Shown: one piece after another, positions 12,002-16,189 of the stretch | Position numbering within the stretch: the stretch's first letter is position 1 | How the letters are laid out: every line of letters begins with the position of its first letter | NCBI GenBank assembly: GCA_965228475.1 | Contig: OZ245817.1 | Span: forward strand, 4,512,001-4,576,000 | Direction: 5' to 3' | DNA: 64,000 nucleotides | From: Myxococcota bacterium | GTDB lineage: Bacteria; Myxococcota_A; UBA9160; JAFDDA01 | The notes under the pieces: model-generated | What the model saw: the letters and a program-made list of their open reading frames with translations, nothing else | Databases searched by the model: none | Told to the model about the DNA's origin: nothing | Translations under genes and position numbers: made by a program

Positions 12002-13525
12002 TCACCCCGCGCAATCGAGCTCGACGTGGACGATGCGTTCTTCGGGGGCGTCCCCCGAGCCCTCGCGCCGCTGGCCGAGGTAGAAGCTGCGGGCGTCGGG
12101 CACGAGGCTGATGCCGGTGGGCGCACCCCAGGCGGCGGTCTCCCCGAGATCGACGCGCTGGCCGCCGCCCTGGGTCGGCCCCCAGACGACTTCGGTCTCC
12201 TGGAAGAGGCCAGCGTCGTCCGCCAGGGCGCGTGCGTAGACCGGCGCGACGGCGAAGCTCACGGCGTCGGGCAGCAGACCCGAAGCGCTCGCCCGCCGGG
12301 CACTCGCCGCCACGTACCAGCCGCCGTCGGTGTTGAAGGATGCCCCGCCGATTCCGGCGACGCTCTCGCCGAGCGCGAGCGCGGATTCCGTCGCCGGGTC
12401 GACGGCATCGATCCGCGCGGGCCCGAGCGGATTCCCCCGAGCGAACACCAGGGCGCGCGCGTCGGGCGACCACGCCAACGGCGCCAGCCAGTCCGCCCCG
12501 CCCTGGGCGAGCGTTCCGACGCCGCCGAGCTGGAGCGAACCGTGGCCCGAGACGAGGCCGCCGGACACCGCCCGGTAGCGTCCGCCCTCGCCCCGCGACC
12601 ACGCGAGCGTGTTCGGGGAGGGCCCGAAGAGCGCCCCTTCGTCGGGGCCGGGCTCGTAGGTGATCCGGCGCGACTTCACGCCGCGGAGCGCCGCCGAGGT
12701 GTTCAAGAGATGGAGTTCGGTGTTTCCCGGGCGGCGCCAGCTCACGTGACGGTCCGTGTCGAAGGCGACCGAGGCGCCGCCCCGGCTCGGCGCGGGCCGC
12801 CGGTTGTTGCCGGGCTCGCCGCAGGTGAGGCAGGCGTGCTCGCCCGAAGCGAGCGTCATCCGATGGATCTGCCGCCGGCCTTCGGGGCCCGGGGCATCGT
12901 AGAAGAGATGGTTCCCCTCGGCGTCGAGGCGCGGGTGTGCCCCGGTCTCGTGGACGACCGCAACGCGGCTCGCACGCGGCGAACACTCGGGCAGGGGCAC
13001 CGTGTCGATCGTCGCGTCGTGGTCGAACACGGCCCGTCGGTTCGCGTCCGTCCGCGTGGGTTCCTCGGCACCGAGGGACGCGGAGAGCGCCGAGGCCGAA
13101 AGGAGTACGAGCCCGCCGCCCAGGACCGCGAGCAGCACGGCGCCGACCTGGGCGCCGAGGCCGCCCACGGGAACCTGCCGGCGGGCGGCCCAGGCGAAGG
13201 CCGCGGCCAGGAGCAGGAACACGAGGAGGAAGGAAGCGACCGGACTCGGCGGAAGCTGCAGCAGCGCGAGCGCGAGGGCGGGCCATGCCACGAGCCCCGC
13301 GCTGGCGGCGCGGGCGAAGCGCGCACCGCGGTCCGGCTCGTCCTGGGGGCGGCGGTCGAGCAGGTGCGCGACCAGCAGCACGACCAGCCCCCCGGCCAGC
13401 GCGCCGAGCCGCACCCACAGACGCGCCGGTTCGTCCGGGTGTTGCGAGACGAGGCTGGCGACCGCCAGGGCACCCAACGCACCGGGGCCCAGACCCGAAA
13501 AGAAACACCAAGCTCGCCAGAACAC
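12002..13525 (-). CDS. membrane-anchored protein with N-terminal TM bundle and TolB/PD40-like beta-propeller
   Basis: About 5 hydrophobic segments, then HPRLDAEGNHLFY, CLTC, RPAPSRGGASVAFDTDR, AWSPDARALVF repeats; GAGGGGG SD. Confidence 0.65.
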   Translation of the reverse strand: MFWRAWCFFSGLGPGALGALAVASLVSQHPDEPARLWVRLGALAGGLVVLLVAHLLDRRPQDEPDRGARFARAASAGLVAWPALALALLQLPPSPVASFLLVFLLLAAAFAWAARRQVPVGGLGAQVGAVLLAVLGGGLVLLSASALSASLGAEEPTRTDANRRAVFDHDATIDTVPLPECSPRASRVAVVHETGAHPRLDAEGNHLFYDAPGPEGRRQIHRMTLASGEHACLTCGEPGNNRRPAPSRGGASVAFDTDRHVSWRRPGNTELHLLNTSAALRGVKSRRITYEPGPDEGALFGPSPNTLAWSRGEGGRYRAVSGGLVSGHGSLQLGGVGTLAQGGADWLAPLAWSPDARALVFARGNPLGPARIDAVDPATESALALGESVAGIGGASFNTDGGWYVAASARRASASGLLPDAVSFAVAPVYARALADDAGLFQETEVVWGPTQGGGQRVDLGETAAWGAPTGISLVPDARSFYLGQRREGSGDAPEERIVHVELDCAG

Positions 13526-13584: not shown

Positions 13585-14805
13585 ATGCCCCTCCCCCCCG
13601 CCACCTCGCCGGCCGACGCCGCGCGCCTGATCGCCCTGGCCCGGAAGGACCGCGCGGCGGCCTCCGAAGCGCTCCTGGGCCTCCCGGTGGACGATCAGGT
13701 GGCCCTGGTCTGCCAGTCCCCGCTGGGCGAGCGGGCGGGGCTGCTCTCCCTGGTGCCGAAGCCCGAGGAGGTCATCCCGCGCATCCCCGAAGCCGAGCTC
13801 TGCTTCATCGTGAAGGCCGCGGGGCCGAGCCACGCCGGCTGGATCGTCGAACACGCGAGCCCGGAGCAGCTCGTCGCCTGCGTCGACCTCGATGGCTGGG
13901 ACGGTGCCCGGTTCGCGCCGGGGCGTTTCCGCGATTGGTGGCTCGCCGCCGCCGACGCCGGCCCGGAGACCCTGCTCCGCTGGCACGGGAGCCTCGACCC
14001 CGAGCTCCTCGTGCTCGAACTCCAGGGCCGCATCGAAGTGACCCAGAAGCCCGACGACGCCACCGAGCGGGAAGGCTGGGCACCGCCGCCCGGATCCCAG
14101 ACCCTCGACGGGGACTTCCACTACCGCCCGCTCCGCGAAGGCGACGACCTCGCCGAGCTCACGATGCTCCTGAAGTGCCTCTACGAAGCGAACTACGCGG
14201 ACTACTTCCGCGTGATGCAGGGCCCGCGTCACGAGCTCCCGATCGAGACCGAGGAGTGGGCCCTTCGCTGGCGGACGGGCCGGCTCGAAGACCTCGGCTT
14301 CCCGTCGCGCGAAGACGCCGCGGCGCTCTTCGCGAGAATCGAGCCCGAGGAGCGCGGCGAACTCCACGACGATGCCGCCGTGCTCGACGTGGCCGGCTTC
14401 CGGTTGCCCGTCTGGTTCCCGAAGGTCCCGATCGCCGTCGATGCGGAACACGCCGTGCTCGCGGCCGCCGCGCGGCTCCCGGAATCGCTGCGCGAAGGCT
14501 TCCTGTACCGCCTGATGGCCGTCGCGAACAAAGTGGCCGTGGCCTACGGCCTGCCGCTCTCGGACGTCGAATCCGTCCCCGCGGCGATGGACGAAGCCGT
14601 GCGCATGACGAGCCGCGGGCTCGAGGAGATCGCGCGCGCGAACGGCGTGGCGACCGAGGAGGTCCTGCGCAGGACGTCGCTCGAGCGGCTCTTCCGCGTG
14701 GGTGCCTCGTTCCATCCCGAGAAGGCCGAACGCGTGCTCGAACTCGGAGAAGCTCCCCTCGAAGAGAAGCCCGGAGCCGACGACGCGGCCGAAGCGGAGA
14801 GCTGA
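13585..14805 (+). CDS. DUF6178 family protein
   Basis: ASPEQLVACVDLDGW, DPELLVL, EEWALRWRTGRLEDLGFP, ANKVAVA, LFRVG pattern. Confidence 0.78.
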   Translation: MPLPPATSPADAARLIALARKDRAAASEALLGLPVDDQVALVCQSPLGERAGLLSLVPKPEEVIPRIPEAELCFIVKAAGPSHAGWIVEHASPEQLVACVDLDGWDGARFAPGRFRDWWLAAADAGPETLLRWHGSLDPELLVLELQGRIEVTQKPDDATEREGWAPPPGSQTLDGDFHYRPLREGDDLAELTMLLKCLYEANYADYFRVMQGPRHELPIETEEWALRWRTGRLEDLGFPSREDAAALFARIEPEERGELHDDAAVLDVAGFRLPVWFPKVPIAVDAEHAVLAAAARLPESLREGFLYRLMAVANKVAVAYGLPLSDVESVPAAMDEAVRMTSRGLEEIARANGVATEEVLRRTSLERLFRVGASFHPEKAERVLELGEAPLEEKPGADDAAEAES

Positions 14806-14836
14806 CCGGGCAACGAGAACCGATGCCCGAAACGAA

Positions 14837-14869
14837 GAACGCCCGCGAACCGACGGCTCGCGGGCGTTC
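14837..14869 (-). terminator. intrinsic terminator between convergent DUF6178 and histone genes
   Basis: 12-bp stem GAACGCCCGCGA / TCGCGGGCGTTC, followed on the minus strand by TTCGTTT. Confidence 0.75.
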
Positions 14870-14889
14870 CAGACTCTCGAGAGCGGCGA

Positions 14890-15108
14890 CTAGATGTCGA
14901 CGGCCTTGATGGTCTTGCGCTTGTTGCCGATCGCGCGCGCCTCGGCACCCTTGATGATGTCGCGGACGTGCGCGTCGAGCGCAGCGTAGAACTCACTGCT
15001 CACGTTGCACTTCTTGGTCGCGCCCTTGGTGCGCGACTTCGAGATGATGAGCTCCGCCGGCTTGCTGCTGCGGCGACGCGTTGCCTTCTTCTTCTTACGA
15101 GCTGCCAT
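14890..15108 (-). CDS. bacterial histone-fold protein (alpha3-truncated type) with basic N-terminal tail
   Basis: LIISKSR-x-NVSSEFYAALDAHVRDIIKGAEARAIGN-KRKTIKAVDI: alpha1-L1-alpha2-L2 layout with the terminal RKT-x4-D histone motif; GGAGG SD. Confidence 0.85.
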   Translation of the reverse strand: MAARKKKKATRRRSSKPAELIISKSRTKGATKKCNVSSEFYAALDAHVRDIIKGAEARAIGNKRKTIKAVDI

Positions 15109-15188
15109 GTTCCGTTTCCCTCCAACGTCGGTGCCGGTTCACGGCGACCGCGTGTTCCCCCCTCGGCTTGCCCGAGGTTCCGGGGCCG

Positions 15189-15222
15189 ATCATAAGCAAC
15201 TTTCCGTCGGGGGCAACGGAAA
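15189..15222 (-). promoter_or_regulatory. putative sigma70 promoter of the histone gene, overlapped by an inverted repeat
   Basis: Minus strand TTGCCC-16nt-TATGAT; TTTCCGT-N8-ACGGAAA palindrome (15201-15222) straddles the -35. Confidence 0.5.
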
Positions 15223-15316
15223 AACGGCCGAAATCGGGCGCGGGAAGCCGCCTGGAGCCCGTTCTCGAAATCGCTTCCGAGACGACTCCGCCGGCCGGTT
15301 CGCTAGTTTCGCTTCC

Positions 15317-16189
15317 GTGCGGGACGTGAGCCAGGCATCGGAGCAAGCCGCGAAGCAGGCCGATTACGGCGCGGCGCGGAGCGAGTTCTTCACGCGCCCG
15401 GAACTCGACGGCGTGCGGCTCCATGCACTGCACTGGGGTGACCCGGATGGGCCGGCCATCGTGCTCGTCCACGGGGGCGGGGCCAACGGGCATTGGTGGA
15501 AGCAGCTCGCGCCCTCCCTCGCGAACGGCGCCCACGTGGTCGCGCTGGACTTTCGCGGGCACGGGGATTCGGACTTCCCGGAACGGCTCGCCGAAGGCGA
15601 CTTCCAGAGCGATCTTCATGCCTTGCTCGACCAGCTCGAAGCCCCGGACGCCGTTCTCGTGGGCCATTCCATGGGCGGAGAAGTCGTTCTACGCGTGGCC
15701 GCCGGCGGCCGTGCGACGCCCCGGGGCGTCGTCCTGCTCGATCTCGCGCGGGGCCGCAGCGACCGGGCCCGCCGCCTATTGCGGCGGGCTCTCACGATCC
15801 GTCACGCCTACCGGACGCGCGAGGAGGCCATCGAGCGCTTCCGCTTCGTCCCGCCCGCCGTCCACGTGGAGGAGGCGCTCCGGAACGAGATCGCCTCCCA
15901 CTCCGTCCACGCGGATGCCGGGGGGCGCTGGAGCTTCAAGTCCCACCGGGGCTGGATCGATGCGATCCCCTCGGACGAAGCGCGCCCGAGCGACGTGGCC
16001 TGCCCCGTGCTCTTCCTGCGCGGCGACGAGAGCGGAATCTGCAGCGAGGACGGGGCCCGCGAGCTGGTCGGGGCCCTGCCGCACGGGCGGCTCGCGACGA
16101 TCCCGCGCGCGGGGCACCACGTCCATCTCGACGCACCCGAGCCCACGGCGCGCGAGATTCGCCACTTCCTCGCCGGCCTTCCGCGCTGA
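15317..16189 (+). CDS. alpha/beta fold hydrolase
   Basis: LVHGGG, DFRGHGDS, GHSMGG nucleophile elbow, AGHHVHLD; GTG 7 nt after TAGTTT. Confidence 0.9.
   Translation: MRDVSQASEQAAKQADYGAARSEFFTRPELDGVRLHALHWGDPDGPAIVLVHGGGANGHWWKQLAPSLANGAHVVALDFRGHGDSDFPERLAEGDFQSDLHALLDQLEAPDAVLVGHSMGGEVVLRVAAGGRATPRGVVLLDLARGRSDRARRLLRRALTIRHAYRTREEAIERFRFVPPAVHVEEALRNEIASHSVHADAGGRWSFKSHRGWIDAIPSDEARPSDVACPVLFLRGDESGICSEDGARELVGALPHGRLATIPRAGHHVHLDAPEPTAREIRHFLAGLPR

Follow-up and report, generated by a model that had tools for sequence, protein, structure and literature searches.

The DNA investigated in this study, a window of 64,000 nucleotides from the genome of a Myxococcota bacterium (contig OZ245817.1 of assembly GCA_965228475.1), contains a short gene encoding a real bacterial histone whose fold is preceded by a Lys/Arg-rich N-terminal tail. 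Histones are a recent discovery in bacteria and, to our knowledge, only two of the bacterial representatives, HBb and HLp, have been characterised, neither of which carries a long basic tail. The explanation that we favour, and to which we assign a probability of about 0.75, describes the protein as a tailed member of the FtF (face-to-face) class, which would assemble into a DNA-wrapping tetramer whose tails would aid compaction, and whose gene belongs to the vertically inherited core of its order. Its value is that of a good example and test case rather than that of a new kind of chromatin, and the published picture remains unchanged.

The assignment to the histones is based on a predicted structure and on the conservation of the family. 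A model calculated with AlphaFold2 (AF2) from an alignment of 89 sequences, with a mean predicted local distance difference test score (pLDDT) of 83.5, contains a helix α1 (residues 24–30), the loop L1, a helix α2 (residues 38–61), the loop L2 carrying R64 and T66, and a helix α3 (residues 69–71). With its three residues and the end of the protein at position 72, α3 falls into the range of three to four residues that characterizes the truncated form of the fold, and R64, T66 and D71, which together constitute the RxTxxxxD motif, are invariant in the 89 sequences. The features of nucleosomal histones such as HMfB and the eukaryotic core histones, an α3 that spans about 10 residues and an α2 of greater length, were not found. 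As judged from the model and the alignment, the α3-truncated histone fold is secure, in line with a preliminary description of this DNA, which had proposed a stand-alone histone of this kind with the same motif and had made the proposal depend on a histone-fold hit. Such a hit was obtained with phmmer, whose single match among the sequences of the PDB is a histone (9F2C chain A, E 0.002). The model libraries do not cover the protein, with Pfam returning only a chance match to CRISPR_Cse1 (E 0.23) and NCBIfam none, and the E-values of all Foldseek matches of the model exceed 0.001 as a consequence of the shortness of the domain. The matches at E ≤ 1e-3 amount to at least 1205 protein clusters (at 90% identity), which, together with the rarity of Lys-rich N-termini in this genome, argues against a chance reading frame.

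The fold is preceded by the sequence MAARKKKKATRRRSSK, whose 16 residues include nine Lys or Arg in addition to T10, S14 and S15, the same count that had been noted initially. Residues 1–19 contain five Lys, four Arg and one Glu, resulting in a net charge of +8 and a pI of 12, the net charge of the core being +7. Averaged over blocks of ten residues, the pLDDT amounts to 51 and 62 in the first two blocks and to 91–97 from residue 21 on, which suggests that residues 1–20 are disordered and which, combined with the charge, identifies the segment as a disordered basic N-terminal extension. The basic stretch is not followed by a hydrophobic core, and a signal peptide was thus rejected. The ATG at 15108 is the sole in-frame ATG, GTG or TTG between the upstream stop codon and α1, and the next in-frame start codon encodes V36 and is located within the fold. 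The equivalent ATG is the only possible start in 12 related loci, nearly all of which show a preceding motif resembling a Shine-Dalgarno (SD) sequence. Since there is a single possible start codon 5' of α1 and the N-termini of homologues agree with it, the tail must be translated, and the downstream start that had been raised as an objection to a genuine tail was looked for without success.

A survey of tail conservation, as proposed in the preliminary description, revealed at least five Lys or Arg in the tails of all 120 closest homologues. Their lengths range from 13 to 28 residues with a median of 18, and 118 of the 120 start with MA[AVEK][RK][RK], where exchanges between Lys and Arg preserve the charge. 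Any Ser or Thr is found in 79 of these 120 tails, at positions that are not conserved. When the comparison is extended to 100 representatives clustered at 50% identity, the core motif was located in 79, to which the count of tails is restricted, the other 21 being excluded; 48 of the 79 have at least five Lys or Arg in their tail, 13 are tail-less (starting 'MAD...'), and some tails reach 44–48 residues. Across the family, a tail is thus either missing or between 6 and 48 residues long, with a variable sequence in which charge alone is retained. Much longer tails of 32–48 residues, rich in Lys, Ala and Thr, are found in relatives that include those of the cultured planctomycetes Engelhardtia mirabilis Pla133 and Rohdeia mirabilis Pla163, and in these two organisms the start is not preceded by an SD sequence. 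Within the window's own genome, which has a GC content of 70%, at least five Lys among the first 16 residues are found in only 5 of 3163 approximate genes, a set that includes the ribosomal proteins L16 and S11. Basic N-termini rich in Lys and Ala (MPTRKKAAKKKSARGK, VPKKKAAQKAKKPASK) are also present in large open reading frames (ORFs) of 944 amino acids (1254573-1257407, plus strand) and 918 amino acids (4272848-4275604, minus strand).

The fold of a monomer alone does not distinguish the FtF class from the dimeric bacterial histones, for which reason the assignment relies on residues at the subunit interfaces. In the literature, FtF tetramers are separated from dimers of the Bd0055/HBb type by R48 and N52 of the sequence logo, which are described as absent in the dimers (PMC11390915). 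The tetramer interface of HLp involves R49, N53 and R55, with a clamp between R55 and D62, and the assembled protein wraps about 60 bp of DNA (PMC12701072). In HTkC, the FtF histone of Thermococcus kodakarensis that was identified by phmmer as entry 9F2C (PMC11390915), R45 binds the carboxylate at the C-terminus of the opposing dimer, and the mutation R45A converts the tetramer into a dimer resembling HBb (bioRxiv 10.64898/2025.12.06.692711). Both HTkC and HLp are reported to bind DNA non-specifically (bioRxiv 10.64898/2025.12.06.692711; PMC12701072). The protein encoded in the window contains equivalents of these residues: R58, which is at least 90% conserved in the 89 sequences, aligns with R45 of HTkC and R49 of HLp at logo position 48, and N62, which is invariant, aligns with N53 of HLp at logo position 52; R64 is the invariant Arg of the motif. 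The C-terminus, D71-I72 followed by the stop codon, is located one residue past the Asp of the clamp, as in D4GZE0 (D54, residue 55) and HLp (D62, F63). The DNA contacts described for HTkC involve S8, K9, K11, K52 and T53, to which S25, R26, K28, K65 and T66 correspond. Scored with the family profile, HTkC obtains 50.5 bits and HLp 42.7, followed by HBb with 31.2, HmvA with 19.2 and HMfA with 14.2. All features of FtF sequences that we examined are thus present, and the toroidal homotetramer that defines the class would be the assembly expected by analogy.

By this analogy, two monomers would associate to a handshake dimer, as in HLp and HTkC, and two such dimers would form a toroidal tetramer held together by R58, N62, R64 and the free C-terminal carboxylate of I72. 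About 50–60 bp of DNA would be wrapped non-specifically around its rim by contacts with S25, R26 and K28 of α1 and with K65 and T66 of L2. The 19-residue tail of each subunit would leave the fold directly before α1, and thus at the DNA-binding face or rim, where the four tails would approximately double the charge of the particle from +28 to +60. They would most likely raise the affinity for DNA and neutralise wrapped or neighbouring DNA, leading to stronger compaction. The gene would be transcribed on its own from a sigma70-like promoter with a leader of about 74 nt, and its product is presumably highly abundant, as suggested by analogy with the FtF histones of Leptospira and Haloferax and by the conserved, strong-looking promoter.

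The most serious competing explanation regards the protein as a stable, DNA-bending dimer of the HBb/Bd0055 type, which would not form a wrapping tetramer and in which the tail would substitute for the missing tetramer contacts. HBb/Bd0055 (Bdellovibrio bacteriovorus; PDB 8CMP, 8FVX, 9EZZ) shares the α3-truncated fold and an RKTxxxxD motif, and Bd0055 had been used for comparison in the preliminary description. We find this unlikely, since the positions that separate the classes are occupied by R58 and N62 in the window protein and by Ser and Asp in HBb, since HBb scores 19 bits below HTkC, and since the C-terminus ends exactly where the bridge between Arg and carboxylate requires it. Sequence search, profile scores and interface residues instead place the protein nearest to the tetrameric, DNA-wrapping HLp and HTkC; the accompanying statement that Bd0055 has no comparable tail is supported. 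Still further from the evidence is a tail created by erroneous annotation of the start codon. There is a precedent for such ambiguity in HLp, for which a start shorter than that of some database entries was chosen on the basis of the SD position (PMC12701072). Here, the lack of any alternative codon between the ATG and V36, the SD sequence 9 nt before the ATG and the situation in the 12 related loci make a downstream start scarcely credible.

The remaining alternatives concern function. A tail serving mainly as a regulatory handle, in which reversible acetylation of Lys or phosphorylation of Ser and Thr within residues 4–16 would tune compaction as in eukaryotes, is compatible with its five Lys, with T10, S14 and S15 in a basic context (RRRSS), and with its disordered and accessible state. 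We consider this role improbable, since its Ser and Thr positions are not conserved, with any such residue being present in 79 of the 120 close homologues, since a segment of 6 to 48 residues with variable sequence retains only its charge, and since the neighbouring genes, encoding a DUF6178 protein, a hydrolase and an amidase, do not link a modifying enzyme to the locus. Equally improbable is its most far-reaching form, where the strictly kept tail starting with MAARKKKK would, in this order of Myxococcota-like bacteria, act as a regulated module of the tetramer with its wrapped DNA, and reversible acetylation or phosphorylation would switch compaction; if true, the control of chromatin by tails would have a counterpart in bacteria with an origin independent of eukaryotes. 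Even less probable is a role outside chromatin, for instance of a small basic protein binding RNA or the ribosome or of a specific transcription factor, to which the missing Pfam and NCBIfam models and the basic N-terminal extensions of ribosomal proteins, with L16 and S11 among the five K-rich genes, might point; against it stand the conservation of the residues by which HTkC and HLp contact DNA (S25/R26/K28 and K65/T66) and the non-specific DNA binding of the characterised relatives.

Several observations weigh against the tailed, tetrameric and abundant histone that we prefer. HTkC contains a Glu at the position of N62 and is nevertheless tetrameric, and the Asn is thus not strictly diagnostic of the class. 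A tail with a charge of +8 next to the interface could change the assembly in ways that the tail-less models of HLp and HTkC do not reveal. The genome contains two hits to the HU/IHF family, and the histone is thus not the sole architectural protein, unlike in Leptospira, which has no HU. With respect to abundance, none of the listed sequencing runs provides RNA data covering the histone locus. The codon adaptation index of 0.74 places the gene only at the 68th percentile and is an ambiguous proxy for 72 codons, and its log-ratio of ribosomal versus genomic codon usage, at the 99.7th percentile, likewise concerns 72 codons and tiny effect sizes. The reference set for these values consisted of 16 ribosomal proteins, RpoA, EF-Tu and EF-G, and the genomic set (n=3163) was obtained by a crude selection of ORFs based on GC3, which missed the histone itself.

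As judged from its distribution, the gene belongs to the core of its order, occurs in a single copy and is inherited vertically. In a sample of the phylum it is present in 79 of 301 genomes, including 46 of 47 others of the same order, all 10 from the sister family of the class, and 22 of 243 from other groups. In a second sample of the order, it was found in 59 of 61 genomes, with one of the two misses concerning a genome that is 74% complete and the other an assembly of 820 contigs with withheld bases. The DUF6178 gene is convergent to the histone gene in 19 of 42 loci inspected over flanks of 3 kb, directly adjoining it in 12, and the hydrolase and the amidase are found in 15 and 8 of these loci. 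This arrangement may reflect plain synteny rather than a functional link. Given the presence of the gene throughout the order and the conserved synteny, an origin from a mobile element was rejected. At 50% identity, 100 cluster representatives match at E ≤ 0.001. The records of the relatives carry the labels Myxococcota/Deltaproteobacteria, Planctomycetota, Krumholzibacteriia, Latescibacterota, Eiseniibacteriota and, among metagenome-assembled genomes (MAGs), 'Spirochaet*', and further relatives are found in the two cultured planctomycetes and in one Thorarchaeota MAG. The latter encodes a tail-less FtF histone of 58 amino acids (L046:2986-3162, plus strand) that is 51% identical and whose stretch SSEFYAALDAKVRD differs in one residue from the window protein, a match that hints at a transfer between Asgard archaea and bacteria.

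The histone is present in a single copy in its 5.0-Mb, one-contig genome, where no second histone-fold copy was found. In five genomes of the same order (G027, G078, G143, G228 and G233), a second histone-fold match is much weaker (E 1e-6 to 1e-7), which suggests that some relatives possess a divergent paralogue. Another genome of the order contains a tandem doublet with two folds in one open frame of 167 amino acids (G193:C50:163422-163790, minus strand), and several doublet proteins of 118–121 amino acids are found among distant relatives (P0175, P0188, P0189, P0198 and P0216).

Comparison with known systems defines what is particular about the protein. HLp (Leptospira perolatii, PDB 9QT0/9QT1; Hu et al. 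2025, PMC12701072), an FtF histone of 63 amino acids, is about 26% identical to it and starts with about 7 disordered non-basic residues, in contrast to the long basic tail found here. HTkC (PDB 9F2C; Schwab et al. 2024; bioRxiv 10.64898/2025.12.06.692711) ranks first among the sequence matches (E 2.1e-12, 33–38% identity) and shares the interface Arg and the DNA-contact residues, whereas it is archaeal, tail-less and 59 amino acids long. The closest precedent for the tail is provided by the catalogue of Schwab et al. 2024, where Supplementary Fig. 13 presents bacterial FtF histones with mostly positively charged N-terminal tails and the source data list lengths of 51–127 amino acids, many of them 63–72; its supplement gives accession numbers and lengths, and the likeness to the histone of the window is one of class and feature. 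Other papers still call prokaryotic histones generally tail-less.

The preliminary description thus holds with respect to fold, motif, the stand-alone gene and a translated, disordered basic tail, whereas the comparison with Bd0055 and the novelty of a tailed histone as a chromatin system in a bacterium are not supported in the form given, as the protein is closer to HLp and HTkC and as tails of FtF histones were already noted in 2024 by Schwab et al., which makes the window histone a further member of a described family. The tails of eukaryotic and Asgard histones resemble its tail in being disordered basic N-terminal extensions of a DNA-wrapping histone fold, and the eukaryotic octamer differs from the homotetramer of a truncated fold that is proposed here. 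Low-complexity tails rich in Lys and Ala that raise DNA affinity and compaction are also known from the N-terminus of Deinococcus HU, the C-terminus of mycobacterial HupB and chlamydial Hc1, where they extend folds that are unrelated to the histone fold. In the literature searched, we found no study of the function of a bacterial histone tail. The clade matters in this respect as it offers a single-copy core histone of a whole order, with a tail that is unambiguously translated and whose charge is conserved. The natural variation in tail length, which ranges from proteins with no tail to tails of about 48 residues and includes those of Pla133 and Pla163, provides a series by which the role of the tail on a tetrameric DNA-wrapping particle could be tested, and the two cultured planctomycetes are tractable organisms for such studies of tail function.

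Table 1. Elements of the histone locus, in window coordinates.
Element	Position	Strand	Basis
Histone coding sequence, 72 codons	14890..15108	−	ORF list; homologous clusters; stop codon TAG at 14890-14892
Codons 1–19, predicted disordered basic N-terminal tail	15052..15108	−	pLDDT, charge count, start-codon scan
Codons 20–72, α3-truncated histone fold with D71-I72 C-terminus	14893..15051	−	
Shine-Dalgarno sequence GGAGGG, 9 nt 5' of ATG	15118..15123	−	sequence; SD-like motif in nearly all relatives
Candidate sigma70-like promoter TTGCCC-16-TATGAT	15189..15216	−	consensus scan; relatives
G6 run in the 5' leader, in or beside a small hairpin	15157..15162	−	leaders of relatives, leader fold
Likely intrinsic terminator between convergent genes: GC-rich hairpin with UUCUUCGUUU after it	14837..14869	−	

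The coordinates of the locus are summarized in Table 1. The ORF of 72 amino acids that had been described at the outset is present with the product quoted then, and the SD sequence, candidate promoter and terminator ascribed to it were all located around it. It is flanked by a convergent DUF6178 gene (plus strand, about 13600-14805 of the window; Pfam E 3e-65) and a divergent gene for an alpha/beta hydrolase starting at about 15326, with an amidase beyond, and the histone gene thus forms a monocistronic unit. The hairpin between the convergent genes, which would serve both, begins 20 nt past the histone stop codon, has a GC-rich stem of 15–16 bp and corresponds to an inverted repeat of 16 nt with 94% complementarity. 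The fold of the segment 14806-14892 has a z-score of -4.28, which was equalled by none of 200 shuffled sequences; in a scan for consensus terminators, the hairpin was not reported. A scan of positions 14780-15340 against Rfam returned nothing above chance. An ORF of 507 amino acids at 12002-13525 has no Pfam match.

Upstream of the histone gene, one sigma70-like site was counted compared to 0.0 expected from shuffled sequences, and many relatives contain a promoter of the form TTGACT-16-TATGAT at the equivalent place. Across relatives, the leader downstream of the promoter measures 47–142 nt. Among 49 unique related loci, 30 have a run of at least five G in the leader, compared to 12.4 ± 2.9 in shuffled sequences, and 3 have a run of at least five C. 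These loci are mutually related, and the counts are thus not independent. The G-run is mostly located directly 3' of a small hairpin whose sequence varies. Formal support from covariation is weak, with RNAalifold yielding only three pairs and -0.36 kcal/mol for 16 leaders, and the fold of the leader in the window has a z-score of -1.13. The G-run might act as an SD-like standby site. Finally, an inverted repeat TTTCCGT...ACGGAAA (15200-15223, minus strand), which was flagged as terminator-like by the scan, overlaps with the -35 hexamer of the candidate promoter and could be an operator or a product of chance.
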